The notes: a model not told the origin generated them from the sequence alone. 64,000 bases of DNA from Ignavibacteria bacterium (GCA_025612245.1 JAAXKQ010000005.1:70009-134008); one strand, 5' to 3'. Numbered from the stretch's first letter, positions 772 through 19,159 are shown. Made by a program: numbers and translations.

Positions 772-1854
772 TTAGTTTCTCAGTCTCAAAAGGTTTTTCC
801 AGCTAGCGGTAAGGGGCTGCATAATCTCATCCACCCTTTCATCCTGTTTTCTTACGAGTGGGATTTCCGGATTAAATGAGGCCGAGGTTCCGAAATCCTC
901 AACTGTTCCGCGTTCAATATAGAAAGCAATAAGGTCAGCGAGCCTGGAAAGGACAACCCTTGAAAAGTAAGGTCCAATCCACCATATATAGGGGCCCGGG
1001 TTGCAGTCAAGCAGATAAAGACTGTTATCCGGTGCAACAATGACGTCCCAGGCGGAGAAGTTTAAGCCCAGGAGCCTGTTTGCCCTGGCGATTAAGGCTT
1101 CGTGTTCGGGGCTGAGGCTTACGGCTTCAAATCCCTTTGCATCGCTGCGGCTGTCGATGTCCTCAGAAACAATCCTGAGAGCAAGAACAACACTGTTTCC
1201 AACCGTGTGGACCCTGATAGTGCTGCCTTTTATTTCCTCCTGGAATAAAGAAGGGCAGTATTGGAGTTCTTCTTTCTCCGGCACCATGTTTTTCAAAAGC
1301 CTCCTTGTTCCTCCGACGCCATAGCCGGCCTTGATGATAAATTCCTCATCATTATGGAGAATCTTTTTTTTATAAAACCTGAGGCTGCCGGTTGCAAATG
1401 TATATGGAACAGGCAGGCCTTCTTGTTCAAGCATGTAGAAAAACTGTGCCTTGGCGTTGTGATGGAAATACGCAGATGGAGGGTTGATTACGAGAGCGCC
1501 TCTTTTTTCAAGCAGGCCGATCATGCCTGAAAATACTTTCTGCCTTGACTCTTCCATTAAGTAGCGTGCCTGCCAGAGGCTGAATTCAGCCGCGTTCAGA
1601 AGAGGCGGAATTACCGGAGGAACGCCGGTATTGATGCACCTTATGTAGACTGCCTTTACCGCAGAGAGATCCTCGCCGTAGACAATTTTATCGTTCCCAA
1701 GTACAATGTTGCTGGTTTTTATCTTGCCGTCTTCCTTAAAAGCCAGCATATAGGGCTTTTTCCCGCGTGACGAAAGTTCTTCAAAAAGAGTTACCGACTG
1801 GGGATCGTTAGCCTCTGGGGCAATTATAAGGCAGTCGGGACTGAAGTGATTCAT
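772..1854 (-). CDS. ATP-grasp family enzyme (RimK/glutathione-synthetase-like fold)
   Basis: 360 aa. Central IIKAGYGVGGTRRL (nucleotide-binding Lys/Gly-rich loop), QEEIKGSTIRVHTVG, and a C-terminal LYLLDCNPGP (D-x-N metal-ligand motif). Overlaps the upstream gene by 4 nt (1851-1854). Last gene of the minus-strand operon. Confidence 0.7.
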   Translation of the reverse strand: MNHFSPDCLIIAPEANDPQSVTLFEELSSRGKKPYMLAFKEDGKIKTSNIVLGNDKIVYGEDLSAVKAVYIRCINTGVPPVIPPLLNAAEFSLWQARYLMEESRQKVFSGMIGLLEKRGALVINPPSAYFHHNAKAQFFYMLEQEGLPVPYTFATGSLRFYKKKILHNDEEFIIKAGYGVGGTRRLLKNMVPEKEELQYCPSLFQEEIKGSTIRVHTVGNSVVLALRIVSEDIDSRSDAKGFEAVSLSPEHEALIARANRLLGLNFSAWDVIVAPDNSLYLLDCNPGPYIWWIGPYFSRVVLSRLADLIAFYIERGTVEDFGTSASFNPEIPLVRKQDERVDEIMQPLTASWKNLLRLRN

Positions 1855-2885
1855 CGAAGCTCCTGATTCTGCTGGATTTCAAACAAGTGGACCAGCATTC
1901 TTTTTAAGAATATTGTCTTTCTTTTTCCCTGAATTACAGGCTTTCGGGGAATCTTTTTCTCCAGGCCTGACTTTTTCAGCATGCCTTCCAGGAGACACGA
2001 CAATGTATAAGTCTGTGCCGCCTGATCCATGTAGGAAATGTTGGGGTCAAATGATACGTCGTAGAACCAGAAATTCCCACTGTCATCCAGAACGCCGAAA
2101 GCCTCGTAAAAGCTCATTCCAAGCAGTCTAAAGAGGGTCTTACCCATATTCTTCAGCACTGGCTGAGGGATATAATGCGTAAATTTTTCCAGCTCCTCTT
2201 TGAAGGCCCCCCTTTCAGGCGGTGAAATCAGACTGATCAGAAGCGGGTTGTCCTCAAAAAATGTAAGCCTTAAAAGGCTTCCGCGCTTTGGTTCATACAT
2301 TAGGTGCGGAAGCGCTAAACTGCCCGCATTAAAAAGTTCTTCCAGCTTCTCGGAACCTATCTCCCTTACAGGCGTCATGGAATCGGGGCTGGACCAGAGA
2401 ATTCCCCCCAGGCGATTGAACATAAGCCTCGCTTCAGAAAGTGAGTTTGTAAGGCATAATTCCGGGACACTTAGCCCTGCATCCTTTAGTCTCATGAGCA
2501 CTTCATGCCTCGAAGTCAGGTTTAAGGACAAGCTGAAATCATTTATTACGGTATATTCATTTTTTTTTGACGAGAGTATGTAAAGCAGGCTGTAGAGCTG
2601 GCTTGTCTGCTGCTGCTGCGACAAGTGAAAGTCCTGAAAAAAGGTCCAGTCGGCAGAAGGTTTTAAGGCAGGGCCGAAGGGGAACCTATAATAGACTCCT
2701 GAAAGAAAAAATACGGATCCTTTTTCGGGCCTGGAGCCACACAGGAGTATTTCCTCCGGGGAAATTGATACTGTAAATTGAGGATCCTTCGGGCACAAAT
2801 TCCTACATTTGATTCCGTTTTTCCGTGCTATTTTCTTCAAGAGCTCCGTCTGAGGGTTATAGTCATCACTTATCAAATAGAGCAT
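1851..2885 (-). CDS. Divergent ATP-grasp-like protein
   Basis: 344 aa. The layout matches an ATP-grasp: RHEVLMRLKDAGLSVPE, then GGILWSSPDS, then LLRLTFFEDNPL, then GVLDDSGNFWFYDVSFDPN. The D-x-N metal motif reads D-V-S, so it is degenerate. Overlaps the TolC-like gene by 20 nt. Confidence 0.45.
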   Translation of the reverse strand: MLYLISDDYNPQTELLKKIARKNGIKCRNLCPKDPQFTVSISPEEILLCGSRPEKGSVFFLSGVYYRFPFGPALKPSADWTFFQDFHLSQQQQTSQLYSLLYILSSKKNEYTVINDFSLSLNLTSRHEVLMRLKDAGLSVPELCLTNSLSEARLMFNRLGGILWSSPDSMTPVREIGSEKLEELFNAGSLALPHLMYEPKRGSLLRLTFFEDNPLLISLISPPERGAFKEELEKFTHYIPQPVLKNMGKTLFRLLGMSFYEAFGVLDDSGNFWFYDVSFDPNISYMDQAAQTYTLSCLLEGMLKKSGLEKKIPRKPVIQGKRKTIFLKRMLVHLFEIQQNQELR

Positions 2886-4608
2886 GTTCCGCCTTCTGAT
2901 TGTCCGTATTATTTATGATTTCCAGGGCCGTCCGGGGTTTAATTCCCAGGTATTGCATAAACTGTATGAGCAGGTCTATCTGGCTGTCGTAAACATTAAG
3001 TATGGCCATTGTTTCCGACAGGCCGGTTTTTTTATACTCGCTGTAGTCAAAGCGTGAAATACGCTGTATTTTGAAGAGCTCCTCGCCTTCCTTCATTATT
3101 TTGTTTGCGTAGGAGAGGTTATTGCGCGCTGAATTAAGGCTGATGTTGGAGGATTTCAGCTTAAATAAAAATTCATTTACCTGCAGATTAATATTCTCCT
3201 TTGTACTTTTGAGGTTCTGTTCCTGCTGTTCGTAATCTTCAATTGCAATCTGCCTCTGTATCCCGGAAGGGGAGGAAAAAAGGCTGAACCTGTAGTTAAA
3301 GCCTACATTCCAGGCAATGCCGTCGGGTTTACGGAAAAGGTTTCCAAGTGAATTTGTAATGGTGGAATATCCAAGCTCATCTGACTCAAAGACAGCCATG
3401 TTGCCTGTAAGAGAAATATCCGGCTTATACTGGTTAAGTGAATAGGCTAAGTTTACCTTTGCCTGTTCGAGCGACTTACGGGAAATTTCTATTTCCGGGT
3501 GCATATCTATAATTTTATCAGTCCCATCCTGCAGGCAGTTATTTACAAGGAACTTTTCGAAAGCCTCAAGATAGGTGTGTACGGAGTCAATTTGTGGAAT
3601 AAAAAGGTACATGTCCTGTGAGTTGACTACACTAGCCGGGTTCAGCTTTGCTGAAAGTGATATATAGTCGAAGAGCATCTGGTCCTTATCAGAAAGCATT
3701 TGCCTGTGTTCTTTTTCTATACGCAGGCGGTCGTAAACCGAGATCAAGTTTTTTGCAGTCAGTACCTGCTGGTCCTGCAACTGAACTTCCGTAAGCGCAA
3801 TCATCTCATGAATCAGCTTGAGCTTGTTCCAGAGGAAATATATTTTGAAGTAGTTTTTAATGGTCTCGTAGGATATGCTGTTTACTGCAATCTGTGAATT
3901 AGTTTTTGCAATATCGATGCTGATTTTTGTAATCTTCTTCTCATTCTCAACAGAAGAGCCTTCCTGTCCGGCATTCTTAAATAGGGGAAGTTCAAAACTG
4001 TTAGACAGTATGGCGCTCCATGGATAGCCGTATGCCTGTGGGAGGACCCTGTTTTTTAAGGAAAGGTTAAGCGCGTTGATGGAAAGTCCGTATGAAGTCC
4101 TGTAGTTAAAGCCCATACTATAAGACTGAAGAAAGTCCCTGTAGTCTGTACTTGCGTGGAGCTCAATTTCTCTTTCCTCCCATCTCAGAGGCTGGGGGAT
4201 CCACATGACGCCGCGGCCGCCGTTGGGAAGCCTGTAATCTGACTTAATTGGGTTCCTGTTATCCCATTCGACGGGAACCCTTGCATTTACGTCAACCAGT
4301 CTGTCGTATGAGCGGTAACCCTGAAGGCCTGCAGAGAGGTTAAAAACGGGTTTATAAGTCTCATCCGACAAAGAAAGCTGAAGGTCGTACTTTTGGATCT
4401 GTGTCCTGATAGAGCCGATTGCATAGGAGCTGCTGACCTGGTGGCGGATAATATCCCCGAGGTCCCTTGCTTTAAGTGAATCAAATACGGCAGAGCGCCC
4501 GGGAAAGATCTTGTTAAAATTATCAAGTATATCGCTTTCCGTCTGGGCATGAGCCGTTGCGGCATAAACAGCTAATATAAACAGTATTCTAGCGAATGAT
4601 CTCAGCAT
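2866..4608 (-). CDS. TolC-like outer-membrane channel (outer membrane efflux protein family)
   Basis: Start reassigned to the ATG at 4606-4608, giving the signal peptide MLRSFARILFILAVYAATAHAQ. About 580 aa with two-fold coiled-coil/beta-barrel organisation typical of the OEP family. The 5' end overlaps the upstream gene by 20 nt. Confidence 0.8.
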   Translation of the reverse strand: MLRSFARILFILAVYAATAHAQTESDILDNFNKIFPGRSAVFDSLKARDLGDIIRHQVSSSYAIGSIRTQIQKYDLQLSLSDETYKPVFNLSAGLQGYRSYDRLVDVNARVPVEWDNRNPIKSDYRLPNGGRGVMWIPQPLRWEEREIELHASTDYRDFLQSYSMGFNYRTSYGLSINALNLSLKNRVLPQAYGYPWSAILSNSFELPLFKNAGQEGSSVENEKKITKISIDIAKTNSQIAVNSISYETIKNYFKIYFLWNKLKLIHEMIALTEVQLQDQQVLTAKNLISVYDRLRIEKEHRQMLSDKDQMLFDYISLSAKLNPASVVNSQDMYLFIPQIDSVHTYLEAFEKFLVNNCLQDGTDKIIDMHPEIEISRKSLEQAKVNLAYSLNQYKPDISLTGNMAVFESDELGYSTITNSLGNLFRKPDGIAWNVGFNYRFSLFSSPSGIQRQIAIEDYEQQEQNLKSTKENINLQVNEFLFKLKSSNISLNSARNNLSYANKIMKEGEELFKIQRISRFDYSEYKKTGLSETMAILNVYDSQIDLLIQFMQYLGIKPRTALEIINNTDNQKAEHALFDK

Positions 4609-6847
4609 AGTCTCCCGGTAAAATTTTATTTCTTGACTGTTCGGTGATCTGGACTGAAATGAGTCCGTCACGATTGGATAATATTTTTCCTTTCCCCGCA
4701 TAGGCCATTTCCTGTTCGCCAAGGAAATCCGACTTTGCGTTGCTGATCCTGGCAAACCTGACTTCCTTTCCGGCCTCAACAATCATGCTTGCCGGAAGCC
4801 TGAGCTGTGCAATTCCATTTTCAACTTTTACAACTTCCATGTAAAGCGGGACGTGCATCGTCACCTCAAAGACCATGCGGAACAAGTTAGGCGGATTGCT
4901 TTTTGCAACCATGCGGTTATAAAAGAGCTGCTTTTTTACTCCCGGTTTTTCCTTGAAGCAATTGAAAACATATTCATTAAGGCCGTCTTTCTGGTTAACC
5001 TGGCAATAGAGGGCTACCTTGGAAATCCTGTTCAGGTTAGCCTGTGAAAGCCTCAGGTTTTCGACATCCACGACTTCAAAGCCGCGTTGTGAAAGATTTG
5101 CCACCAGTGCACTTTTAAGCCTGCTGACGTCAAGTTTTCCATGAGCCTTGACAGGCATGAGAAATATCTTGTTCACCTTGGAGAGGCTTTCAGAATTGAA
5201 GCTCTGGAACATGGTTCTTAATTTACTCTCATCAACAGCTGCCCAGTCGCCATACGGGTGCAATGTAAAGGAGCTGCTGGAATAAATGACTGTCGGATCT
5301 GCCGTCCTGAGTATTGCCTGTATATTTGAAACGACGTTCTGCGAAATGTTATCTTTGCACCACATTAAAGACAAAGGCTCGCTGCCTACGGAGAAGTTCT
5401 CTATGAGATTTGCTCCAGGGTTGGCGTACTTGTAGTAGTAGGCCGCCTCTTCGCTCACGAAGGCCACGTCGCTTTTGCCAGCAATGACAGAGTCAATTGC
5501 ATTGTAGGACATTTTTGCGTAGCTGAGCCTTGAGAAGTATGTCTCGGGATCGACGCCGCTTTTATAGAGCGAGAGGAAGGGTGAAAGGTAAGCATTTTTT
5601 GAAAACACAGCCTTAGTTCCCCTGATGCCATAAATATTTTTGAAAGTCCTTCTGCTCGAAACGGCAACGACATTAACGTAATTTTTCTTGCTCCAGGTCC
5701 TAATCAGTATAGGATGCCCGGAATGCGAAGAGTACAGCCGGTCCGAGATAATATTGTTGAAAATTGCAATGCTTACCGCGCCACTGGTGTAAGCATCGTA
5801 GAGCTCTTCCTCGGAGCCGTAAATCTTGAGCTGGAACTCCACGCCGCAGTTTTTCTTCAGGAACTGCAGCACGGGTTGCCATTCGGCTGCCATGGTGGTG
5901 TTTCCCACCGGCAAGACTGAAGTGCTGCTGATGCCGATTACCACGTCGCCTATACCGGCTAAGCCCTGAAGAGAATTGTTCCCTATAATGGTGAGTTTCG
6001 GGAACTGCGACTGCAGGTCCTCCATTATGCTTGAGCGTTCCTCGGCATTTGTGGATTTCATGTACATGGAATACTTATCCCAGAATTTTTTCCATGCAAA
6101 AGCCTTGGGGTAAAGGTTATTGAATATATATTTAACAGTGCTGTACATGCCGGGAAATTTTTCCTTGAGAACAATGTCGTGAGCCTGAAGTATGTTTGTA
6201 ATGTTAGAGCCGTACGTAAAGAGCGAGTCTATCTTCCAGGATTCCGGCGCAACACTTGCAGCCTCCGGAGGGAGGGGATAATCGTTGTAAAACTTTACGA
6301 ATGGAACGACTTCACGGAACAGGTCGACCAGGAACAGCATGTCGGGATTGTTTTGTTTTACAAGCCTGAAATCCTCCTCATTCATAGCAGCCAGGCTGAC
6401 GTCGCCGTAGGTGGCAAACTCAATTTCAAGATTTATCACGTTCTTTCTGACAATCAGTTCACCGTAAATTTTCTTCAGCTCCTGCCTGGAAGGATATTTG
6501 TCAACTGCCAGCCTGAAGGTTTCTGTCAGGTCGTCAGTTTTTGTAAGAAGAGTATCGATCTGCTCCATTGTGGTGAAATTTCGTTCGGAATACTTAATGT
6601 AATTTTCAAACTCGCCCGTTATCTTTTTAACGTACAGGTTCTCCTCTCGGACGCCTCTGACATAAATAATAGCCGTAAGCAGGACGGAAAGGAATACAAC
6701 CAGGGTTACTCCGAGCATCGTTTTTCTTTTCTTTGAGAGCCTGAAAGCGTTGACCGGTTCTTCTTTAGGGGCTTCTTCTTTTGGAGTTTCTTCCTGTTCA
6801 AGGAAAAGCTTTATTCCCTCTTCATCTGTTATTTTATATTTATTCAC
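4589..6847 (-). CDS. Single-pass membrane protein with large extracytoplasmic region containing a PhnD-like (type-2 periplasmic binding protein) domain
   Basis: 752 aa. Charged N-terminus, then one TM helix (MLGVTLVVFLSVLLTAIIYV). The central segment EWQPVLQFLKKNCGVEFQLKIYGSEEELYDAYTSGAVSIAIF...GTKAVFSKNAYLSPFLSLYKSGVDPETYF...SDVAFVSEEA resembles phosphonate-binding (PhnD) folds. Its start codon directly abuts the upstream stop codon (6847/6848). Confidence 0.55.
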   Translation of the reverse strand: MNKYKITDEEGIKLFLEQEETPKEEAPKEEPVNAFRLSKKRKTMLGVTLVVFLSVLLTAIIYVRGVREENLYVKKITGEFENYIKYSERNFTTMEQIDTLLTKTDDLTETFRLAVDKYPSRQELKKIYGELIVRKNVINLEIEFATYGDVSLAAMNEEDFRLVKQNNPDMLFLVDLFREVVPFVKFYNDYPLPPEAASVAPESWKIDSLFTYGSNITNILQAHDIVLKEKFPGMYSTVKYIFNNLYPKAFAWKKFWDKYSMYMKSTNAEERSSIMEDLQSQFPKLTIIGNNSLQGLAGIGDVVIGISSTSVLPVGNTTMAAEWQPVLQFLKKNCGVEFQLKIYGSEEELYDAYTSGAVSIAIFNNIISDRLYSSHSGHPILIRTWSKKNYVNVVAVSSRRTFKNIYGIRGTKAVFSKNAYLSPFLSLYKSGVDPETYFSRLSYAKMSYNAIDSVIAGKSDVAFVSEEAAYYYKYANPGANLIENFSVGSEPLSLMWCKDNISQNVVSNIQAILRTADPTVIYSSSSFTLHPYGDWAAVDESKLRTMFQSFNSESLSKVNKIFLMPVKAHGKLDVSRLKSALVANLSQRGFEVVDVENLRLSQANLNRISKVALYCQVNQKDGLNEYVFNCFKEKPGVKKQLFYNRMVAKSNPPNLFRMVFEVTMHVPLYMEVVKVENGIAQLRLPASMIVEAGKEVRFARISNAKSDFLGEQEMAYAGKGKILSNRDGLISVQITEQSRNKILPGDYAEIIR

Positions 6848-8098
6848 TTATCTTTTCTCCTTAAATGAGGAAGGGTGGATGTTGTATTTTGTACAAAGCT
6901 GATAGATCCTTGAGAATGACAGACCGGCAGCCTTTGCCACCTGTTTGATTTCACCCTTGCATTCAGTCATCATTTTTTCCAGGGAGTCTTTGCTGTTAAC
7001 ACTTTTGGTGCCGTTTCCCATTGCAGGCACTTCCTCGGCAATAGGTTTATTTATTCCGTTAAACCTGTTCTGGTAAGTTTCCGTCAGGTGCTCAATTGAA
7101 GAAACGCTTCCTTCGGGTGTCAGTGCAATGATGAGTTTTGCAATGTTTTCAAGTTCCCTGATATTTCCCGGATAGTCGTACCTTGAGAACAGGAATTCCT
7201 TTAATTCTGCGCCCAGCTCCGGAACGGGCAGGTTCAGCTCCCTGGAAATGTTGCCCAGAAAATGTTCCAGCAGAAGCGGTATCTCGTCTTTTCTCTCCCT
7301 TAAAGGCGGCATATAGATCTCGCAGACCGAGAGCCTGTAATAAAGGTCCTCCCTGAACTTACCCTGCTCCATAAGGCGGCTTAAATTTTTATTCGTTGCG
7401 GCAATTACCCTTACATCAACGTTGACCGTTCTGTCCAATCCGATCTTTTGAATTTCGCCGAACTGAAGGACGCGCAAAAGTTTAACCTGAGTGCTTTCGT
7501 TGAGTTCACCTATTTCATCAAGAAATATGGTACCCCCGTCGGCTTCTTCGAACTTGCCGGGTCTGAAGCCTGAAGCTCCGGTAAAGGAGCCTTTCTGATA
7601 TCCGAAAAGCTCAGACTCAATCAGCTGCTCCGGTATGGCTCCGCAGTTTACTGGAAGGAATTTCTCTTTTTTGCTCAGCTGGTGAATTACCCTGGCAAAG
7701 ACTTCCTTGCCCGTACCGGTCTCACCAGTAATCAGTATCGGGTAGCCCGTTTTGGCAAAGCGAACGGCCATAGTAAGCAGCTTCATTATTTTGGGATTTT
7801 TACCGATAAAGTTCGGAAATTCGAACTCAGGAGCCCCGGTTCCTTCAGAAATGCCGTAGACATTACTTACCGGTGAGAACGATACGATCTGCCCACGAAG
7901 CATGTCCAGCTCGGTCAAAATCGAATGTCTTTCGGATTCCAGTAGCCTGCTGTTTGCAACCATCTGCCCCCGCAGGACTTCCACATGAAGGAGCATGTTA
8001 TTAATCCTGCTGCCCGAGCTGTAAAACGAAGCACTAACTTTGGCATCCAGTCTGTTGTTATCCTCAAGAGGAAGAATCTTCAGTTTAGTATTTTTCAT
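6848..8098 (-). CDS. Sigma-54-dependent transcriptional activator (bEBP) without a recognisable receiver or sensor domain
   Basis: 416 aa. AAA+ core with Walker [16 protein letters not shown], the GSFTGA loop (GAFTGA variant), Walker [19 protein letters not shown] and [11 protein letters not shown]-terminal Fis-type HTH (IKQVAKAAGLSFSRIYQLCTKY). Only about 95 aa of coiled-coil-like sequence lie N-terminal to the AAA+ core. Confidence 0.9.
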   Translation of the reverse strand: MKNTKLKILPLEDNNRLDAKVSASFYSSGSRINNMLLHVEVLRGQMVANSRLLESERHSILTELDMLRGQIVSFSPVSNVYGISEGTGAPEFEFPNFIGKNPKIMKLLTMAVRFAKTGYPILITGETGTGKEVFARVIHQLSKKEKFLPVNCGAIPEQLIESELFGYQKGSFTGASGFRPGKFEEADGGTIFLDEIGELNESTQVKLLRVLQFGEIQKIGLDRTVNVDVRVIAATNKNLSRLMEQGKFREDLYYRLSVCEIYMPPLRERKDEIPLLLEHFLGNISRELNLPVPELGAELKEFLFSRYDYPGNIRELENIAKLIIALTPEGSVSSIEHLTETYQNRFNGINKPIAEEVPAMGNGTKSVNSKDSLEKMMTECKGEIKQVAKAAGLSFSRIYQLCTKYNIHPSSFKEKR

Positions 8099-8118: not shown

Positions 8119-11100
8119 TTACTCGACTCCAAGCTGATCCTTTGCCATTGCATAATAGAATCCTTTCTGACGGATCAGTTCATCGTGAGTGCCTTTCTCC
8201 AGGACAATTCCGTCGCCGAGGAAACAGATTATGTCTGCGTTTCTTACCGTGCTCAGTCTGTGGGCAATGATAAAGGCCGTACGGTTAACGAGAATATTAT
8301 TCAGGTTTTCCTGAATCTTTCTTTCCGATTCCGCGTCAAGGGCTGATGTAGCCTCGTCAAAAATGAATATCTTGGGATTTCTGTAAAGCGCCCTTGCAAT
8401 GCAAATCCTCTGTTTTTGCCCGCCCGAGACTGCAAGGCCTCTTTCGCCGACTATCGTTTTATACCCGGCCGGCAGCTGTGTGATGAATTCATGGGCCGCG
8501 GCCATTTCTGCTGCCTCGCGGACCCTCTTCTCATCGGGATTTATGTCGCCAAGTGCTATGTTTTCCATTACCGTTCCGCTGAAAAGAAAACTTTCCTGGA
8601 GCACCATTCCGATGTTCCGTCTCAAAGAAAGGAGGTTAATATTCTTTATGTCAACCCCGTCAATCAGCAGTGAGCCTCCCGTAGGCATAATGAATCCCGG
8701 GATAGTTTTAATTAAAGTTGATTTGCCGCAGCCCGACTTGCCGACAAAGGCAACAACCTGACCGGGTTCCACTTTAAGGCTTATGCTTTTAAGTACGAGC
8801 GGTGAATCTTCAGAGCCATACCTGAACTGGAGGTTATTAAATTCAATGCGGCCATCGCAGTGTGTCATTTCGCGTTTTATTTCGCCGGCTGATACAACAG
8901 GTTTTTCCTCCGGCTCGCATTCAAAGACGTCGTTCAGCCTGTCCATTGCAACAGAAACCGACTGGTAGTTATCCCACAGTCCTACGATGCTCATGATAGG
9001 GCCCATTACAGAGCCTATAAGTGCATTAAATGCCATTAGCTGTCCGATGGACATAGAGCCATTGATTACCTGGTTGGAGCCCACCCAGAGTATGGCTACC
9101 GTAGATGCCGTATTCAGTGTCTGACTTATGACACCCGAGACTAGTCCCAGCTTCTGTGACTTAAAGGACAAGTTTACGGATTTCAGGAATGATTCTTCCC
9201 AGCGGTTTCTGACATTCCATTCCGTTCCGTTTGCCTTGATGGTCTCGATGCCGTGTATGGCTTCTATGAGATAGGATGACTGGTCGGAGCTAACAATGAA
9301 CTGCTCGTTGCTGATCCTTTTGAAAATAGGCGTAAAGACGAAGGTCAGCGCGATAAAAAACGGAATAAATGCAAGAACCACGAGTGAGAGTGTAACGCTG
9401 TAGAGAAACATCATCTGCAGATATACAACCAGCATAATTACGTTAAGGACCGTAGAAATTGAGGCCTCGGTAAGTATGGCCCTGATCTTTGAGTTTTCGC
9501 CAAAGCGCGTTATCGTGTCGCCAAGTTTCCTGTTGTAAAAATAACTCATCGGGAGGCTGAGCACGTACTTGAAAAACTCAGCCAGCATGCGAAGGTCCAG
9601 CTTGGCTGAAATGGTTGCAATTATGAACTGCTGGGCGCTCGAAGTCAAAGTGGAAAAGAAAGCAACGAGCACCATTCCCATCAGCATCATGTTCAATAGA
9701 GACGTGTTTTTATAGACTATTACGTTATCAAGAATGGACTGAATAAAAAGAGGGCTGGCAAGGCCCAGAATATTCAGTATGAGTGCCCCTATAAAGACCT
9801 CAATCAAGAAAATCTTCATTGGTTTCAGGTAGTTTATGTACCTGAATATCGGGTTCTTCGCCGGCTTGAGCTCATTAAGGCGTTCTGTAGGCTCAAGCTC
9901 AATGGCATAACCGGTCCAGCTTTTTTTGAACTCGCCGTGTGAAATTTTTCTGATTCCGATTGCAGGGTCAGCCACCCACACGAATTCTTTGGATATCTTA
10001 AAAAGTACAATCCAGTGATAACCCTGCCAGTGAAGAATGGCAGGAAGGTTTACATCTTTTAATGCCGGGTATGTAAGCTTCAGCCCGCGCGTCCTGAAGC
10101 CGAGGTTTTCACCTGCCTTGCACACGGCAGCCATTGAGGCGCCTGCAACAGAGACGTTTGCCATTTCCCTTACCATACCCATGCTCAGCTTGTGTCCGTA
10201 GAACTTGGAGACCATCGTAAGGCAGGCAGCACCGCAATCCATTTCGTCGTGCTGCCTGAGCCAGGGGAATTTCTTTATTTTCTTTCCCTCGTCGAAAGCA
10301 GGGAATTCATCCTCAGTTTCGCTTGTGTGAGAGCTGAGTTCTTTCTGGCGCTTCTCTTCAGTTTCGTAGCTGTTGATTTTCTCTAAAAGGGCCTCCCTCA
10401 GTGCTCCGTTCAAGGAAAATATTTCCTGGACAAAATTATTAGGGATTTCGAGCAATGTTGCGGCCGTCTTGGTCCTGGCTTCATAGCCCTGCTTCCGGCC
10501 AGTAATTGCTCCGTACTCGCCCAAAAAGTCGCCATTATGGGCCAGCCCGACGGAGAACTTGCCTTCGGGCATATCCCTGAGAATTTCTATAGAGCCCTTT
10601 ACGACGTAATAAAGGGAGTTGCTCATTTCGTCCTGTTTGAAGATGGTTTCGGCTTCTTCGTAGCCGGAAATCCAGACACTCTCAGAAAGCTGGCCTAGCC
10701 AGGCTTCGTCCGGCTTTTTGACTGCAACTATTTTTGAAAGCAATCTCTTAAATTCGGAGCATGCAATTTCTTTTTTCAGCTTGGAGGCAACACTGGCAAG
10801 CTCTGGCTTCCCGGCATTTATTTCATATACAAGGGTTTCATCGGCCGAAGAAATGGAATAATCCCAGCAGCCGGGCCTGATGAAAGACATCTCGCCCGTA
10901 AAGTCGCCGGCATTTAATTTCCCGACGCTTCTGAGTTTATCGTCAATCTTTTTTTTGAGGCGGAGGCTTCCTGAAACGACGGAAATAAAGGTATTCTGCT
11001 CATCGCCCTCGTTATAAAGCTCTTCGCCAAGAGTGAGCTTTCGTGTTGAGGTATTAGCCGAGAGAGCCTCCATCTCCTCAGCTGTAAGGCCGGAGAAGAG

Positions 11101-11148
11101 TGACACAGAATTTAATTTTTCTAAAACCGCATCTTCTTTAAAATACAT
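8119..11148 (-). CDS. C39 peptidase-domain ABC exporter with two N-terminal cyclic-nucleotide-binding-like domains
   Basis: 1009 aa. Two cNMP-like modules lie at about aa 15-125 and 150-250 (LFSGLTAEEMEAL...GDFTGEMSFI; YYVVKGSIEIL...GDFLGEYGAITG). The C39 domain has Gln299, Cys305 (RQHDEMDCGAACL), His378 (GYHWIVL) and Asp394 (VADPA). A six-helix TMD follows, then an NBD with GKSGCGKST, VSGGQKQR, IFIFDEATSALD and IIAHRLS. Confidence 0.9.
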   Translation of the reverse strand: MYFKEDAVLEKLNSVSLFSGLTAEEMEALSANTSTRKLTLGEELYNEGDEQNTFISVVSGSLRLKKKIDDKLRSVGKLNAGDFTGEMSFIRPGCWDYSISSADETLVYEINAGKPELASVASKLKKEIACSEFKRLLSKIVAVKKPDEAWLGQLSESVWISGYEEAETIFKQDEMSNSLYYVVKGSIEILRDMPEGKFSVGLAHNGDFLGEYGAITGRKQGYEARTKTAATLLEIPNNFVQEIFSLNGALREALLEKINSYETEEKRQKELSSHTSETEDEFPAFDEGKKIKKFPWLRQHDEMDCGAACLTMVSKFYGHKLSMGMVREMANVSVAGASMAAVCKAGENLGFRTRGLKLTYPALKDVNLPAILHWQGYHWIVLFKISKEFVWVADPAIGIRKISHGEFKKSWTGYAIELEPTERLNELKPAKNPIFRYINYLKPMKIFLIEVFIGALILNILGLASPLFIQSILDNVIVYKNTSLLNMMLMGMVLVAFFSTLTSSAQQFIIATISAKLDLRMLAEFFKYVLSLPMSYFYNRKLGDTITRFGENSKIRAILTEASISTVLNVIMLVVYLQMMFLYSVTLSLVVLAFIPFFIALTFVFTPIFKRISNEQFIVSSDQSSYLIEAIHGIETIKANGTEWNVRNRWEESFLKSVNLSFKSQKLGLVSGVISQTLNTASTVAILWVGSNQVINGSMSIGQLMAFNALIGSVMGPIMSIVGLWDNYQSVSVAMDRLNDVFECEPEEKPVVSAGEIKREMTHCDGRIEFNNLQFRYGSEDSPLVLKSISLKVEPGQVVAFVGKSGCGKSTLIKTIPGFIMPTGGSLLIDGVDIKNINLLSLRRNIGMVLQESFLFSGTVMENIALGDINPDEKRVREAAEMAAAHEFITQLPAGYKTIVGERGLAVSGGQKQRICIARALYRNPKIFIFDEATSALDAESERKIQENLNNILVNRTAFIIAHRLSTVRNADIICFLGDGIVLEKGTHDELIRQKGFYYAMAKDQLGVE

Positions 11149-11150: not shown

Positions 11151-12569
11151 CTATTTCCTTTCATCCTCACCGCTCAGGTAATCAAAGAACTTTCCTATAG
11201 GGGCAAAGACCAGTTCAATAATCCGTTTTTTACCTACAACAACTTCAGCCAGGCCGTTAGCCCCGTAAATCAGGTTTATTCTGGGGTTCTTTTTCGTAAA
11301 TCCCACCTGTGCTTCATAGACATATCCCAGGCCCTCGACGAGCTTTGTATCCTTTGCCAGGCTGACCAGCTGTCCTTCCTGGACCCCGTACTCCTGGTAG
11401 GGGAATGCGTGGAATTTTACGAATACCGGCTGACCAACTTTGACTTTTGAAATATCCTTGTTCTCAATGTATATCATTCCGTATCTTGGAAAATCGTTCC
11501 TGATTATCCGGCAGACAACCTCGCCCTGGTTGATCATTTGAGACGACTTTACGAAAAGCTGGCTTACGACGCCGGGGAACTGCGCTTTTACGATGGCCTG
11601 GCTTTGTGTTATTTCAACTCCCTCGGTCCTGCTGTTTACATTTTTTATCTGCAGGTTATAGTCCGAAAGCTGCGTGGCAAGGCTCTGCCTGAGTGAGCTC
11701 ATCTGTTTTAAGGCATTAAGGATGTCCGACTTGAATGAGCTGACATAGTTGTCTATTGTTGAAGAGACAGAGTAGTATTCTCTTTCCGAATTCATCAAAT
11801 CGGGACTGGAGATAATGCCTTGATTTAAGAGAGTCTTATTTTCATTATAAATTTTTGCGCGCTTTGAAAGAAGAATATCCGATTTCCTGACTTCATTAAG
11901 AAGATTGTTCGCACGCACCTTTAAGTCGGAGACCATCAGCCTGTATTCGTTGAGGCCGTTATATTGACTTACGTCATAAGCCGAGGAATCAAAACTGAAG
12001 TCATTCAGCTCTGCGATAACCTCGCCTGGAATAGGGACGCTGAATCTTTTATCTTTTTTCCCGTAGTATTCCCCGATTCCCTTTGTCTGCCTGATGAAGT
12101 CGCCCAGTTTTATTATCTTTTTAATTATTTCGTCGCGCTTATCTGTGAGATCCTTTTTTTCGAGTCCTGTCACGTTAATATTGGGGGAATAAATGGACAG
12201 GATTTCGTCATTAAAGGTGACGATGTCATTTTCATTGATCCCGAGTGAGGATACAATTCCGGAGAATGGCGCCTGCACGACGTATTCCTCGCCCCTTACG
12301 ATAAGGGGTGAACTGACCGTGTCGTCGACCTGCACAATTGTCGAATAGATGATGGCTCCGATTACAATTACAAAGACGAGATAGACCGGTCCCCTTAAAA
12401 CCCAGCTTGGAGGCGTATCCAGGAAAGTAGCTACAGAGACGGAAAATTCCTGCCTTGTTGTGTGCTCAAAGAGGTTTAGTGCCTTGTACTTTACGGGCTC
12501 ATTGTCTTTGGGGCTATCCTTTTTAAATTTTTTTCTGAAAAGAGAATAGAGTTTTTTTATTTTATCCAT
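11151..12569 (-). CDS. HlyD-family periplasmic adaptor (membrane fusion protein)
   Basis: 472 aa. N-terminal TM helix (VYLVFVIVIGAIIYSTIV), a lipoyl-like hairpin (VVQAPFSGIVSSL...ILSIYSP), a long coiled-coil, and a C-terminal beta-barrel (IVKAQFPGVVSQL...GEVVCRII). Ends 2 nt before the ABC gene. Confidence 0.8.
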   Translation of the reverse strand: MDKIKKLYSLFRKKFKKDSPKDNEPVKYKALNLFEHTTRQEFSVSVATFLDTPPSWVLRGPVYLVFVIVIGAIIYSTIVQVDDTVSSPLIVRGEEYVVQAPFSGIVSSLGINENDIVTFNDEILSIYSPNINVTGLEKKDLTDKRDEIIKKIIKLGDFIRQTKGIGEYYGKKDKRFSVPIPGEVIAELNDFSFDSSAYDVSQYNGLNEYRLMVSDLKVRANNLLNEVRKSDILLSKRAKIYNENKTLLNQGIISSPDLMNSEREYYSVSSTIDNYVSSFKSDILNALKQMSSLRQSLATQLSDYNLQIKNVNSRTEGVEITQSQAIVKAQFPGVVSQLFVKSSQMINQGEVVCRIIRNDFPRYGMIYIENKDISKVKVGQPVFVKFHAFPYQEYGVQEGQLVSLAKDTKLVEGLGYVYEAQVGFTKKNPRINLIYGANGLAEVVVGKKRIIELVFAPIGKFFDYLSGEDERK

Positions 12570-12640
12570 CTTTTGAAATCTGTCCGTTAAATAAATGACT
12601 GCTGTATTTTGGGAAAAACTAAACTAAAGGCTTAGAGAAT

Positions 12641-14761
12641 CTATTTTAAGATCATGATCTTTTGTGCCTGAGTAAAACTTCCACACCTCATCATCACAAA
12701 GTATGTGCCGCTTGGAAGATATTTTCTCCCCCATGAAAGCTTATGGTAACCTTTGGTCATCAGTCCTTTTAATATGTCTTCCACCTTTCTGCCCGTTACG
12801 TCATATAGTCCGATCTCGACATAGCCTTCCTTCGGGATGGAAAAGTGCAGAGTGGTAGATGGATTAAAGGGATTAGGATAAGGTTCATATAAAGCGTAAG
12901 CGCCTTTTTTAATCATGTCATTCGGAGTCTGGCAGTGCTGGTGAAACAGCCCCGTCACGGCTACGGGAAAAGGATTCGGATGCAGCAGGAATAACGGTAT
13001 TTCATCGGGGTTCTGCATGCCGTCATCTTCACAATAAAGGTAGTTATTTGTTACTTCAAGGTTTACCACTTTGAGGCTTTTCATCGTATCAGGTATTGTC
13101 TTGAGGAAGTTGTCTGATATGTTTATGGTTGCAACCGGGTTTTTGAGCTTTGTCAGGACAAGTGGCATTGAAGTAAACTTGTTGTTGTCGAGAGTTAAGT
13201 TAGCCAGGCTGTCAAGTCCGGAGAAACTCTCCGGAAGGTCCGTTAGCTCGTTATAAGACAGTGTAATGTTTACGAGCCTCATTTTTCCGAAATTCTCCGG
13301 GAGTCTGGCCAGTTTGTTGTTCTTAAGGCTGAGTACCCTGATCTCCGGGAGGTTGCAGAAGCTCTCCGGCAATTCCACCAGTTTATTATTCTCAAGGTTC
13401 TGCACCACAATACCCTTCAGATTTCCGTAGTTTTGCGGAAGGCGGGTAAGTTCGCAATTTTGCAGTGCAATTACGCGGAGCTGGGTCCCTATCTGCCCGA
13501 ATGTTTCGGGCAACGTTTCCAGGGGGTTGTCATTCAGATAAATTTCCTTCAGAGTGTGAAGGTTTCCTATGGAGCCCGGAATACTTGTAAGTGAATTGCC
13601 GTATAAAAAGACAGATTCAATGGATGGGAAGCTTCCGAAGGCAGAAGGCAGCAAAGAAAGGCTGTTGCTCGAAAGGTCCAGCATCTTTAGCTGCGGCATC
13701 AGTCCAATGTCATCCGGCAGAGATGATATCTTATTAACTGAGGCATTGAATGATTCAAGGCTATCCATCTGCCACATGTTTATGGGCAGCGTCTTTAAGG
13801 CATTTTTTGAAACGTTAAGAGACTTTAGCCCCTTCAGGCTTGTAATTCCGCCGGGAAGGACCTCAAAATTATTATCCGCAAGTATGAGCGTCTTCAGGCT
13901 AGTCTTCAGGCTAAAGAGCCCTTCAGGAAGCGTTTTCAGGTAATTTTTCTCAAGGTTGAGCAAATTTAGTTTCTTCAGGCCTCCAAGAGTTCCGGGGAGG
14001 CTTAAAAGAGAGTCATAAGTAAGAGATAATGTTTCGAGTCTGGACAAGCTCCCCGTGCTGTTCGGGAGCTTATAGAGCGAACGGTTGTTATCCAGGTAAA
14101 GTTCTGTAAGAGGTAGCCCATCCAGGTCTTCTTCTTTTATTTCTTTAATTATATTCCCGGCAAGGTTCAGATACTTCAGCTTACCAAGCCTGTTAAAGAA
14201 TTTGATGTCGGAGCCAAAGCCCGGGATGCAGAACAGTGTGTCTGCAGGCAGCCTCTGAAGTCCGTTTGCCGACAGGTCCAGATAGCTCAGTGAATTAAGA
14301 TACACAAACTTTTTCGGCAGGGCGGTAAGCCTGTTGCCGGAAAGGCTCAGGAACTGAAGGCCGGAAAAAGCAGTGATCTCATCGTCGAGGCTTTTAACGG
14401 CATTGTTATTCAGAATCAGTGTGTCTAAATTTGTGAGCTTGTAAAAATTTACGGGCAGGAAGGTAATCTTGTTATAGCTCAGGTCCAGATAGTGCAGTGC
14501 CGTAAGGTTTTCAATTGTTTCGGGAATATTTTCCAGGTCGTAATTGCTTACGATAAGTTTCTCGAGTCTCCCAGTAAAATAATTCCATTTTTGATAACCT
14601 ATCGATCCCGGGGCTTCACCATACAGGCTGTTTGCCGCACACAGATCCCTTATAAATTGAACGTCATCCTCATTAAGCGATAACTGAGCAAAGGTTGTCT
14701 GAAGGAAAATGCACTGAAAAGCTGCAACTAATACTAAATTTCTCAGCCAATTTATTTTCAT
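12641..14761 (-). CDS. Leucine-rich-repeat protein with T9SS C-terminal sorting domain
   Basis: 706 aa. Signal peptide (LVLVAAFQCIFLQTTFAQ). Roughly twenty 23-24-aa LxxLxLxxNxLxxLP repeats by hand estimate. C-terminus is YPNPFNPSTTLHFSIPKEGYVEIGLYDVTGRKV...KIMILK. The 71-nt gap to the HlyD gene has no evident hairpin. Confidence 0.85.
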   Translation of the reverse strand: MKINWLRNLVLVAAFQCIFLQTTFAQLSLNEDDVQFIRDLCAANSLYGEAPGSIGYQKWNYFTGRLEKLIVSNYDLENIPETIENLTALHYLDLSYNKITFLPVNFYKLTNLDTLILNNNAVKSLDDEITAFSGLQFLSLSGNRLTALPKKFVYLNSLSYLDLSANGLQRLPADTLFCIPGFGSDIKFFNRLGKLKYLNLAGNIIKEIKEEDLDGLPLTELYLDNNRSLYKLPNSTGSLSRLETLSLTYDSLLSLPGTLGGLKKLNLLNLEKNYLKTLPEGLFSLKTSLKTLILADNNFEVLPGGITSLKGLKSLNVSKNALKTLPINMWQMDSLESFNASVNKISSLPDDIGLMPQLKMLDLSSNSLSLLPSAFGSFPSIESVFLYGNSLTSIPGSIGNLHTLKEIYLNDNPLETLPETFGQIGTQLRVIALQNCELTRLPQNYGNLKGIVVQNLENNKLVELPESFCNLPEIRVLSLKNNKLARLPENFGKMRLVNITLSYNELTDLPESFSGLDSLANLTLDNNKFTSMPLVLTKLKNPVATINISDNFLKTIPDTMKSLKVVNLEVTNNYLYCEDDGMQNPDEIPLFLLHPNPFPVAVTGLFHQHCQTPNDMIKKGAYALYEPYPNPFNPSTTLHFSIPKEGYVEIGLYDVTGRKVEDILKGLMTKGYHKLSWGRKYLPSGTYFVMMRCGSFTQAQKIMILK

Positions 14762-14903
14762 CTTTTAAGATTCGTTTCGAAGGTTCTTAAAGTAACAAAA
14801 TTTGATTATAAACGAAAGCGTACATAAAAGAAAATTCCTTTAGATTTATTTTCGTATTTTTGCGTAAATTTTTTAATCGAAATTCAAATTATCTTCAGGC
14901 TGA

Positions 14904-16472
14904 ATGATGCCAGTGAAAGTTATAGCTTTAATTTCCTCCATGTTTGTACTTTCGTCCTTACTTACATTTGCAGGGGGAATCCGGGTTAAAAACGCCGTAA
15001 TTGATGAAATAAACCTGCAAAAGAAATATGCCTATGTGAGTTTTGACCTGAGCTGGGAAAACTCATGGCGGAGTGATCTGCCCGGAACGGGCCATGTTGA
15101 CCCTTTTAACCACGATGCCGCCTGGGTATTTGTGAAATATAAGGACCAGGCGGGCTACTTCAGGCATGCATTGCTTTCGAGCATAAGCCGGAGCCACGTT
15201 TCGGACGGGAAAGCTGCAATTAGTGCATCCCCGGATGGCAAGGGGGTCTTTATTTATTCCGGGAGCAATTTTTCGGGGCGCGCTGAATACAGGGGAATTA
15301 GGCTCAAATGGAATTTTGGTTCTGAAAATGCGGAAATTAAGAAAAGTACGGAGATCAGGGTCCTTGCTGTTGAAATGGTCTATGTTCCTGAAGGCTCCTT
15401 TTATGCCGGCGACGGCGCTTCCTATGGAAGCCTCTACGGCAAAACTCAGGATGTGCCATCGCTAATCGGCGAAGGCGAGAGCCTGGTTAGGGCTTCCAGG
15501 AACAGTTTTGATGATGAAGCTCTCATTCAGGAAGGATTTTGGATTTCGGGTAAATCGGGCATAAGATCCAAAGACGGCTCATTTGAAAATCCGGAATACC
15601 CGTGCGGATACGGAGCCTTCTATATTATGAAGTATGAAATATCACAGGGAGAGTATTCCGGGTTTTTGAACCTGATTTCGGTAAAACAGTCATACAGGCG
15701 TGAAGCAAAGGCCTATGGTGAATACAGGAATACGATCAGATTTGACGGAAATAAGTTTATTGCAGAACGCCCTTCAAGGGCCTGCAACTTTTTAAGCTGG
15801 ATGGATGGCGCTGCGTATGCAGACTGGACGGGGCTGCGCCCGATGAGTGAGCTTGAGTTTGAAAAAGCTGCCAGGGGTTTTAACTCCGGGGCAGGTCTTC
15901 CAAATGCCGCAAAAAAGAATGAATTTGCGTGGAATGATGATAGCATCAGTCCCGCACTGTCAATTGGGGGAAAGGAAGACGGTTCTGAGGTGGCCGAAGG
16001 TAATGCTGCATTTGGCAATGTAACCTATAAAGGAGGCGACGGTATGTCCGGTCCCTTGAGGTGCGGGATCTTTGAAAATCCGGGACAGGGGAAACTTTCA
16101 GGCCGAAGCTACTATGGGGTCCTGGACCTAAGCGGCAACCTTGCCGAACAGTGTGTTACAATCGGCAACCAGGCAGGCCGTTCATTTACAGGTAATGAAG
16201 GTGACGGCATGTTGAATGAAGCCGGGGACGCCGACGTAAGCTACTGGCCGGGCATTAATGGCAATTCAGATCAGGAGAAGTCAAGCCTGGCCTATGTGGG
16301 AAATGTTGTTGAAGGGCCCGGGGTTACTGCTGCAGCCGGAAGCGGGCAGAAAGGAGGCAGCTGGTATACGAAAAAGAGTTTCCTCATGATCAGCGACCGC
16401 TCGTACGCTTCACATCCGCTTGACTATAGATCCGAGTCCGCCGGTTTCAGATGCGTAAGAAGTGCCAGATAA
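14904..16472 (+). CDS. Exported FGE-sulfatase (SUMF1/GldK-like) domain protein
   Basis: 522 aa. Signal peptide (VIALISSMFVLSSLLTFAGG). The C-terminal half has SWMDGAAYADWTGLRPMSELEFEKAARG, YGVLDLSGNLAEQC, KGGSW and a terminal GFRCVRS, matching the formylglycine-generating-enzyme fold signature. Confidence 0.75.
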   Translation: MMPVKVIALISSMFVLSSLLTFAGGIRVKNAVIDEINLQKKYAYVSFDLSWENSWRSDLPGTGHVDPFNHDAAWVFVKYKDQAGYFRHALLSSISRSHVSDGKAAISASPDGKGVFIYSGSNFSGRAEYRGIRLKWNFGSENAEIKKSTEIRVLAVEMVYVPEGSFYAGDGASYGSLYGKTQDVPSLIGEGESLVRASRNSFDDEALIQEGFWISGKSGIRSKDGSFENPEYPCGYGAFYIMKYEISQGEYSGFLNLISVKQSYRREAKAYGEYRNTIRFDGNKFIAERPSRACNFLSWMDGAAYADWTGLRPMSELEFEKAARGFNSGAGLPNAAKKNEFAWNDDSISPALSIGGKEDGSEVAEGNAAFGNVTYKGGDGMSGPLRCGIFENPGQGKLSGRSYYGVLDLSGNLAEQCVTIGNQAGRSFTGNEGDGMLNEAGDADVSYWPGINGNSDQEKSSLAYVGNVVEGPGVTAAAGSGQKGGSWYTKKSFLMISDRSYASHPLDYRSESAGFRCVRSAR

Positions 16473-16535
16473 GGGCTTACCTTTTTGGGAGCCCATTTGG
16501 GTTAAAGTTTATATCTATAATTATAATATTCCAGC

Positions 16536-16574
16536 GCCGGACTATAATATTATAATTTATATCAGGCCGGACTA
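16536..16574. repeat. Direct repeat GCCGGACTA x2 with a 30-bp period, each embedded in an AT-rich palindromic context
   Basis: GCCGGACTA occurs at 16536-16544 and 16566-16574, flanked by TATAATTATAATATT / TATAATATTATAATTT. Lies about 65-120 bp upstream of the candidate -24/-12 element. Confidence 0.5.
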
Positions 16575-16639
16575 CGAATATGAAACTTCAATTCCTTAAA
16601 AATCGTTCCAAAAAGCCAAATAGTAGCCTTCAGGGAATC

Positions 16640-16655
16640 AGGCATAAAACTTGTT
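16640..16655 (+). promoter_or_regulatory. Weak sigma-54 -24/-12-like element upstream of the precursor genes
   Basis: AGGCAT-N5-TTGT compared with the consensus TGGCAC-N5-TTGC. GG is at the correct -24 position but the -12 GC reads GT. Lies 55 nt upstream of the ATG at 16711. Confidence 0.25.
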
Positions 16656-16710
16656 CAAGAAATAACAGATATTTATTTATGCTTACTCAAAATTTAACAG
16701 GAGGCCCTAC

Positions 16711-19120: not shown

Positions 19121-19159
19121 TCAGTTTCATTTTTTCAATAATTTAACCGGATAACTTAC

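Follow-up and report, generated by a model that had tools for sequence, protein, structure and literature searches.

We analyzed a 64,000-nucleotide (nt) stretch of DNA from an Ignavibacteria bacterium (GCA_025612245.1, JAAXKQ010000005.1:70009-134008), hereafter the window, which encodes an export operon where the gene for a sigma-54 activator (bacterial enhancer-binding protein, bEBP) directly precedes the gene for a 752-amino-acid (aa) membrane-anchored protein with a periplasmic binding protein (PBP) domain, denoted here as X. A previous reading made from the sequence alone had proposed that these two proteins could form a transmembrane ligand-sensing pair that autoregulates the locus. Our analyses suggest that, rather than a dedicated pair of sensor and regulator, bEBP and X probably represent two modules within one system. 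The overall best explanation, which we advance tentatively, is that two separable modules of a single export system are joined at the bEBP/X junction. Gene content, domain architecture, phyletic pattern, and conserved promoter-like elements were observed directly; which promoter bEBP drives, and every protein-protein contact discussed below, we infer.

Gene content of the export operon

The operon is encoded on the minus strand in the order HlyD, exporter, bEBP, X, outer-membrane protein (OMP), and two ATP-grasp-like genes. The exporter combines cyclic nucleotide monophosphate (cNMP)-binding, C39 peptidase, and ABC domains and is of the peptidase-containing ABC transporter (PCAT) type.

11151-12569, minus strand: HlyD-type adaptor (Pfam/NCBIfam)
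8119-11148, minus strand: PCAT exporter with two N-terminal cNMP-binding domains and a C39 peptidase (Pfam/NCBIfam)
6848-8098, minus strand: bEBP, 416 aa (Pfam Sigma54_activat)
4589-6847, minus strand: protein X, 752 aa (Pfam Phosphonate-bd, AlphaFold2 (AF2)/Foldseek)
2866-4608, minus strand: TolC-like OMP (Pfam OEP, E 4e-23)
1851-2885, minus strand: divergent ATP-grasp paralogue, 344 aa (no Pfam match)
772-1854, minus strand: ATP-grasp-like protein, 360 aa, weakly MvdD/TIGR04187-like

This order, with HlyD and the cNMP-C39-ABC exporter upstream and the TolC-like OMP downstream, confirms that the pair resides in an export operon. The PCAT gene ends 20 nt before the bEBP gene starts. As had been noticed earlier, the TAA stop codon of bEBP (6848-6850) abuts the GTG start codon of X (6847), which is preceded 9 nt upstream by AAGGAG. 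The OMP gene probably starts at 4608 (MLRSFARILF..., with a signal peptide) and would thereby overlap X by 20 nt.

Distribution of bEBP and X

Homologs of X are rare, amounting to about 15-25 clusters. An exhaustive HMMER scan of 1.84 billion representative proteins recovered only about 15 full-length relatives (736-772 aa, 20-34% identity) plus fragments, and narrower alignment searches returned one locus each in genome and metagenome collections. The sole match for X among GTDB representatives is a 2.7-kb contig binned with the Acidobacteriota (L010; JBLMYS010000327.1) that is 75% identical to the Ignavibacteria locus and is therefore probably mis-binned.

Genes for bEBP and X are adjacent in eight lineages (the window, L001-4 with the closely related L010, L005, L008, L009, L012, L013, and L015) that span 16-76% identity in X, and in these they abut, overlap, or are split only by a small gene for an SBP_bac_3 lipoprotein. 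The bEBP gene immediately precedes X in the window, L001-4 (76% X identity), L005 (34%), L008 (22% in the family alignment, 23% by phmmer), and L012 (22%). In L009, L013, and L015 (Delongbacteria), an SBP_bac_3 gene encoding 245-267 aa overlaps the end of the bEBP gene and represents a second periplasmic binding-protein module at the bEBP/X junction; two of the three encoded proteins carry lipoprotein-type signal sequences.

L009, 4830-5633: interposed SBP_bac_3 gene
L013, 2602-3360: interposed SBP_bac_3 gene
L015, 10902-11639: interposed SBP_bac_3 gene

The two genes also occur separately. Homologs of X with the same cytoplasmic tail motif, but with no adjacent bEBP, were identified in four Kapabacteria-type loci. 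Two of these (L006/7 and L011) have the order HlyD-PCAT-X-OMP followed by two ATP-grasp genes, L017 has PCAT-X, and in L018 an X-OMP-346-362 cassette stands alone in a 5.46-Mb genome with no adjacent exporter. Kapabacteria-type genomes carrying X include a 5.46-Mb contig (ERZ21831104) and a 4.5-Mb metagenome-assembled genome with MDT3741157.1. Two histidine kinases of about 525 aa are encoded directly after the X cassette in L018 (16169-19358), and these may be an alternative signalling output. An OMP gene follows X, mostly overlapping it, in every locus examined (12/12). The invariant unit is therefore X, OMP, and two ATP-grasp-like genes, and the invariant neighbor of X is the OMP gene, not bEBP.

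The N-terminal domain of bEBP is likewise found where X is not. Residues 1-97 of the activator (nt 7808-8098) match no Pfam or NCBIfam domain, including REC, GAF, and PAS. This upholds the earlier description of a stretch of about 95 aa lacking such signatures ahead of the AAA+ domain; however, that stretch is not the coiled-coil filler it had been taken for, but a conserved domain that marks a cross-phylum subfamily. An alignment of orthologues revealed an N-terminal K(I/L)KILPLE motif followed by a helical hairpin (LL.(V/L)E.LRG...ELD.LRG), both kept among X-containing loci. The domain also aligns with that of 400-445-aa activators from Gammaproteobacteria, Planctomycetota, Magnetococcales, Massilia, and Dechloromonas, with pairwise E of 6e-7 to P0068 and 0.003 to P0126, which are from loci that lack X. 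Orthologues with this N-domain follow a cNMP-PCAT gene in the window, L001, L008, L009, L012, L013, L015, and L016.

Two genomic contexts of bEBP without X, both from Proteobacteria, were examined. The first, L014 (Gammaproteobacteria), encodes cNMP-PCAT, HlyD, three OMPs, bEBP, and a PpiC-like protein. The other, L016 (Massilia aerilata, GCA_042656905.1), encodes a PpiC-like protein, cNMP-PCAT, and bEBP, followed by PP2C, 14 precursors, a Ser/Thr kinase, and an FGE-sulfatase protein. Since both are the same kind of export system, bEBP appears to be part of the PCAT module, independent of X. Collectively, the phyletic pattern argues against an obligate X-bEBP pair: co-occurrence of the two genes was recovered in distant lineages, but each also occurs without the other.

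Features of the sigma-54 activator

The remainder of bEBP has the core features of a sigma-54 activator. Pfam identified Sigma54_activat (PF00158; aa 98-261, E 6e-66) and AAA_lid_14 (aa 267-344), and both the Walker A (GETGTGKE, aa 125-132) and Walker B (FLDEIGE, aa 192-198) motifs are intact. The loop that contacts sigma-54 reads GSFTGA (aa 170-175; nt 7574-7591) instead of GAFTGA, as had been reported, and orthologues carry one or the other form. GSFTGA is among the variants compatible with activity and is present in Desulfovibrio bEBPs with assigned regulons (PMC4641369). A Fis-type helix-turn-helix (HTH; aa 384-407, nt 6878-6949) is conserved as a motif, and Pfam called it (HTH_8) only in orthologues. 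An identical deposited protein, from an Ignavibacteria metagenome-assembled genome, is annotated as a sigma-54-dependent Fis family transcriptional regulator; type IX secretion system sorting tails encoded elsewhere in the window agree with an Ignavibacteria origin. Searches of Pfam identified no HisKA or HATPase_c gene in the window operon, and neither PspA nor HrpV families were matched by neighboring genes in Pfam or NCBIfam.

Precursors and candidate sigma-54 promoters

The putative target of bEBP is a divergently oriented operon that encodes two tandem precursors and a pair of putative chaperones.

16522-16655, plus strand: candidate control region of the precursor operon
16522-16533 and 16543-16554, plus strand: palindromes TATAATATTCCA and TATAATATTATA, 21 bp from center to center
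16640-16655, plus strand: -24/-12-like element AGGCATAAAACTTGTT (AGGCAT-N5-TTGT), 55 nt upstream of the first precursor ATG
16711-17157 and 17168-17620, plus strand: two tandem double-glycine-leader precursors, 148 and 150 aa, with the C-terminal peptide SESVSIPVTLSL
17789-19918, plus strand: SurA-like (443 aa) and PpiC-like (252 aa) proteins downstream of the precursors, TIGR04500-related

The window precursors share a leader of the form M[AS]RIKLNDLE..QLDAEALK.VTGG (MARIKLNDLEVNQQLDAEALKNVTGG), a glycine-rich core (GGxGG runs, WGFLNFG), and a conserved C-terminus (SESVSIP(V/I)T(L/M)SL), and they match no NCBIfam family. A hidden Markov model (HMM) built from 10 leaders recovered every precursor (E 1e-10 to 1e-14) and detected precursors in L007, L012, and L016, with those of L007 and L012 being of the same type as in the window. 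We also considered whether the tail of X (KYKITDEEG) or the N-terminus of bEBP (KLKILPLE) mimics the leader (RIKLNDLE); neither was recovered by the leader HMM at E <= 10, and this idea was rejected. The SurA- and PpiC-like proteins score 99.9 and 71.7 bits against TIGR04500 ('peptide maturation system protein'), below its cut-off of 180.

The element at 16640-16655 is the sole GG-N10-G[CT] element in the intergenic regions that flank the operons; none was detected upstream of hlyD, upstream of the leucine-rich repeat (LRR) gene, or between PCAT and bEBP. The suggestion that the whole locus is autoregulated is thus not borne out, with a -24/-12-like element present only at the precursor operon. 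The palindromes lie about 90-120 nt upstream of this element, and the exact palindrome is unique within the window. Counterparts of the element (AGGCACAATACTTGTA) and of the palindromes (TGTAATATTACA and TATAATATTACA) were identified in L001, where the 21-bp spacing is kept and the spacer sequence has diverged. A second -24/-12 match upstream of hlyD (GGCACATACTTTGT; 12696-12709) was rejected because it lies inside coding sequence and is not conserved in L001.

In L016, 14 precursors of about 64-96 aa are encoded in tandem in three sub-arrays (12088-16977), and their leaders are of the same type (MKTLIITDLARTETLDRSAMRSLRGG). An identical canonical sigma-54 promoter (TGGCACGCATCCTGCT; TGGCAC-N5-CTGC) lies 74-78 nt upstream of the first gene in all three, each sub-array is preceded by a terminator-like hairpin, and inverted repeats are found further upstream of the promoters. 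In L012, TGGTATTATTTTTGCC is found upstream of a precursor together with AT-rich palindromes.

The organism uses sigma-54 elsewhere too. A second activator with a long N-terminal region (61852-63999, plus strand; Sigma54_activat at aa 401-567) is divergent from TGGCACGCCTTTAGCT (61702-61717, minus strand), the window's strongest match to a sigma-54 promoter, which is 52 nt upstream of a minus-strand gene that ends at 61650.

Proposed organization of the system

We propose that glycine-rich proteins of about 120 aa, made with double-glycine leaders, are the cargo of this system and that its first module comprises SurA/PpiC-like proteins, HlyD, cNMP-PCAT, and bEBP. As a dedicated sigma-54 activator that would be co-transcribed with the exporter, bEBP may switch on the promoter at 16640-16655 and thereby the precursor and chaperone operon. 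Because bEBP would be made together with the exporter, this would constitute a machinery-first cascade in which transcription of the precursors awaits expression of the exporter operon. The 97-aa N-domain may serve as a regulatory or oligomerization handle. Since it is shared with systems that lack X, its input would most likely be a component common to all such systems; we favor the cNMP-domain PCAT, whose gene usually lies immediately upstream of that for bEBP, or, more simply, the level of bEBP itself.

The second module would comprise X, OMP, and the two ATP-grasp-like proteins, with X acting as an exporter-coupled, envelope-spanning subunit. The FlgT/TolB-N-like end of X probably docks near the outer-membrane channel, while its degenerate binding clamp and signalling-type alpha-domain, described below, probably report periplasmic state. 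The conserved tail of X would contact a cytoplasmic partner, for which bEBP is only one candidate receiver.

Domain architecture of protein X

X was previously described as having a short cytoplasmic N-terminus, one transmembrane (TM) helix, and a large outside region with a PhnD-like fold. This topology is supported here, as is the PhnD-like fold, although the outside region comprises three domains, not one.

6719-6847, minus strand: cytoplasmic tail, 43 aa ending in KKRKT
6800-6841, minus strand: conserved motif of the tail, KYKITDEEGIKLFL (family alignment)
6656-6718, minus strand: TM helix, aa 44-64 (single hydrophobic segment, Kyte-Doolittle maximum 2.6)
5960-6655, minus strand: alpha-helical domain, to about aa 281
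5198-5950, minus strand: PhnD/AioX-like type-2 PBP, about aa 300-550
4592-5182, minus strand: FlgT/TolB-N-like module and beta-barrel

The positive KKRKT cluster before the helix indicates an N-in orientation, with a large periplasmic part. In the family alignment, a 15-residue tail motif (KYKITDxEGxxLFL) is strongly conserved among proteins with only 16-34% overall identity, and equally so whether or not a bEBP gene is adjacent. Invariant aromatic and proline residues mark the first periplasmic domain in the same alignment. The only Pfam family covering any part of the X family is Phosphonate-bd (aa 317-475 of X, E 7e-18). An AF2 model of X (pLDDT 83, pTM 0.72) consists of a disordered tail, the TM helix, an all-alpha domain, a complete type-2 PBP, and a C-terminal alpha/beta-plus-barrel module.

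Structural comparison of the PBP by Foldseek placed AioX and ArrX at the top (E 7e-14), followed by PtxB, HtxB, and PhnD (TMt 0.64-0.82 to PhnD, PtxB, AioX, and ArrX), and a profile search of PDB sequences recovered ArrX (5e-7) and PtxB (7.5e-7). In the profile alignment, the S-x-S-G anion-binding loop is absent from X: opposite MSFSG of ArrX and STSS of PtxB, X shows a gap or residues that are not conserved, and this stretch is not conserved within the X family. In a second AF2 model, from which the PBP was omitted (pLDDT 82.6), the C-terminal module matches FlgT (E 7e-8 and 1.5e-7), the TolB N-domain, LpoB, and PqiC. Collectively, the fold matches of X are to PBPs and FlgT, with none to membrane fusion proteins (MFPs), and no member of the X family has a HlyD or biotin-lipoyl match in Pfam.

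The alpha-domain returned no Foldseek match from the second AF2 model, and a profile search with its alignment returned none. However, hhalign comparisons indicate that it has homologs in two other proteins, in each case as the periplasmic domain next to the TM helix: an FHA protein (P0041; probability 97%, E 1e-10) and P0043, a Ser/Thr kinase with two FGE-sulfatase domains (probability 96%, E 5e-9). These relatives point to a possible role in signalling, and the P0043 fusion hints that X and the FGE-sulfatase protein may be functionally linked. The Massilia Ser/Thr kinase encoded next to bEBP was considered as another carrier of the alpha-domain and was rejected (hhalign probability 0.1%). 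An X-like protein, P0020, has a 171-aa cytoplasmic extension with no meaningful match among PDB sequences.

Alternative explanations

Several alternatives to two separable modules warrant consideration. X might be a transmembrane ligand sensor, with its PBP binding a periplasmic signal, possibly the exported product, and its tail binding or releasing the bEBP N-domain as a kinase-free switch for transcription of the locus. We consider this possible but doubtful. It would account for the retention of bEBP-X adjacency in eight lineages down to 16-20% X identity, the conserved tail motif, the SBP_bac_3 lipoprotein gene that in three lineages lies between the two and is translationally coupled to bEBP, and the presence of the alpha-domain in FHA and Ser/Thr-kinase membrane proteins. 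The top structural matches of the PBP, AioX and ArrX, are moreover sensor PBPs that feed a sigma-54 regulator (PMC5908839). However, the same tail motif is found in four loci without an adjacent bEBP, one of which also has no adjacent exporter, and the bEBP N-domain is conserved in systems that lack X. The loop that forms the PhnD/AioX pocket is missing from X. Nothing points to autoregulation of the locus as a whole, since no sigma-54-like promoter precedes the exporter operon. The ligand-sensing pair of the sequence-only reading is therefore supported in its adjacency, tail, binding fold, and alpha-domain relatives, and weakened by the separable occurrence of its members, the OMP gene as invariant neighbor, and the missing anion loop. 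A related version, in which X is a kinase-free trans-envelope transducer whose periplasmic stack (the alpha-domain, the degenerate PhnD-like clamp, and the FlgT-like module near the outer membrane) senses engagement of the conduit or the exported product and whose 15-residue peptide sequesters or releases the bEBP N-domain, is in our estimation unlikely. If true, precursor transcription would depend on the physical state of the secretion machinery, representing a new route of envelope information to sigma-54. Also improbable is a non-signalling role, where X would be a structural or chaperone subunit (a periplasmic ring, a second adaptor around the HlyD/TolC-like conduit, or a factor in hand-over of the product to the surface) and bEBP would be constitutive and controlled by its amount only. 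The FlgT/TolB-N/LpoB-like C-terminal module, typical of periplasmic scaffold proteins, the HlyD-like topology, the invariable coupling to the OMP gene, the degenerate binding loop, and the existence of the cassette without bEBP are all consistent with such a role. On the other hand, a 15-residue cytoplasmic motif kept at 16-34% overall identity implies a cytoplasmic partner, homologs of the alpha-domain carry FHA or kinase domains, and bEBP keeps a 97-aa N-domain that a constitutive activator, such as the AAA+ core of PspF, would not need. Finally, the Pfam match to Phosphonate-bd (E 7e-18), and the name of phosphate/phosphonate substrate-binding protein given by JGI and NCBI, would suggest that X is an ordinary phosphonate- or phosphite-binding protein of an ABC importer that is here by chance. 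This is effectively refuted: no importer permease or ATPase genes are found in any of the 12 X loci, the N-in TM anchor and about 500 extra residues in three other domains are foreign to such a protein, the S-x-S-G loop is absent, the OMP/ATP-grasp synteny holds in 12/12 loci, and scores against NCBIfam phosph(on)ate-binding families are far below cut-offs (28.7 versus 112 bits and 21.2 versus 261 bits).

Several observations also weigh against the explanation that we favor, namely that bEBP and X belong to separable modules. Adjacency in eight lineages, with abutment or overlap of stop and start codons, would also be expected of a functional pair. One protein, P0026, joins a PhnD-like domain, TM segments, and a Sigma54_activat AAA+ domain in a single chain, which favors a sensor role for X, although its GAFTGA loop is degenerate and its similarity to X is confined to the level of the PBP. 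The bEBP contexts without X that were examined number only two (L014 and L016), and the Kapabacteria-type genomes in which X has no adjacent bEBP may encode one elsewhere. Lastly, confidence in the window promoter is only moderate, because its -12 region is TTGT instead of TTGC in the window and L001 alike, while the near-consensus site at 61702-61717 has GC at -12.

Comparison with characterized systems

None of the AioXSR, PspF-PspA, HetC-type PCAT, or rosaritide systems has this combination of components. AioXSR comprises the PBP AioX, the kinase AioS, and the sigma-54 response regulator AioR, with the PhnD-fold sensor acting through the kinase (PMC5908839). AioXSR and ArrXSR resemble the window operon in pairing a gene for a PhnD-fold periplasmic protein with one for a sigma-54 activator, and AioX and ArrX are the best matches of the X PBP. 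Unlike these systems, the window operon has no histidine kinase and its bEBP has no REC domain, X is a 752-aa membrane-anchored, multi-domain protein without the oxyanion pocket loop, and the likely target is a peptide-precursor operon, not a molybdoenzyme.

In the Psp system, envelope state is relayed by membrane proteins. As with PspF-PspA(-PspBC) and HrpRS-HrpV, the activator here has no REC, GAF, or PAS domain, making control by a partner the obvious option. However, PspF has no N-domain, unlike the window bEBP with its conserved 97 aa, and no PspA or HrpV homolog is encoded nearby.

The exporter shares its cNMP-C39-ABC architecture, and its operation with HlyD, with HetC of Nostoc and NHLP-type TIGR03796 exporters, although it scores below the TIGR03796 cut-off (550 versus 853 bits). 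The cNMP domain of HetC binds ppGpp, and this domain is needed for HetC function (PMC10986499). In the window PCAT, the phosphate-binding cassette of the first cNMP domain lacks the usual Arg (FTGEMSFIRPGCWDYSISSA), and a ligand other than a cyclic nucleotide is therefore possible, by analogy to ppGpp and HetC. The window operon differs from HetC-type systems in also encoding a sigma-54 activator, X, a TolC-like OMP of its own, and ATP-grasp-like proteins.

The PPIase-associated graspetide cluster for rosaritide encodes a precursor, an ATP-grasp (TIGR04187), a PpiC-type partner (TIGR04500), and a PCAT (PMC13097080). The same four gene types are present here, where ATP-grasp, TIGR04500-related PpiC/SurA-like, PCAT, and leader-bearing precursor genes were identified. 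However, all matches here fall short of the family thresholds, and instead of short peptides the cores are proteins of about 120 aa rich in glycine. The characterized cluster has no HlyD, OMP, X, or bEBP.

The last two domains of X match the TolB-N-like plus F1/FliI-type beta-barrel arrangement of FlgT from the Vibrio flagellar H-ring; however, TM-scores are about 0.25 and X has no flagellar context, and the similarity is at the level of fold only. X shares the N-in single-TM topology of HlyD-family MFPs but not their lipoyl, beta-barrel, and alpha-hairpin domains.

We found no description in the literature of sigma-54 control of double-glycine-leader peptide loci and no report of protein X. 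If confirmed, our observations would define a group of short sigma-54 activators with a private N-domain that are apparently dedicated to cNMP-PCAT peptide export, with sigma-54 promoters before precursor arrays, and that range across Ignavibacteria, Delongbacteria, Gammaproteobacteria, and Betaproteobacteria. X would likewise represent a very rare family, outside of Pfam except for its PBP core, and could be an additional subunit, or a sensor, of a type I secretion machine, with an architecture that reaches from a conserved cytoplasmic peptide to an outer-membrane-proximal FlgT-like module. Its alpha-domain would tie these loci to FHA, Ser/Thr-kinase, and FGE-sulfatase proteins, suggesting alternative signalling front-ends for the same kind of export system. 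The control of a bEBP that lacks a sensor domain thereby becomes testable with few constructs.

Neighboring genes and additional observations

The 360-aa ATP-grasp-like protein scores 50 bits against families with cut-offs of 350-475, far below these thresholds. The 344-aa protein aligns colinearly with this neighbor over 262 residues (19% identity, pairwise E 0.06) and is likely to be a degenerate partner of the ATP-grasp. A KYK..LFE motif in the tail of the window HlyD was considered and set aside, as it is not conserved in other loci.

Two further genes lie between the export operon and the precursors.

12641-14761, minus strand: LRR protein with a type IX secretion system (T9SS) sorting tail
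14904-16472, plus strand: FGE-sulfatase-domain protein

LRR proteins with a T9SS sorting tail are also encoded near the related export loci L008, L012, and L015, and FGE-sulfatase-domain proteins with a signal peptide are encoded at L008, L015, and L016. Farther downstream, the window encodes an apparently unrelated protein of 2141 aa (28124-34549, plus strand) with many bacterial Ig-like domains (Big_3_5 and Big_1) and a T9SS sorting tail.

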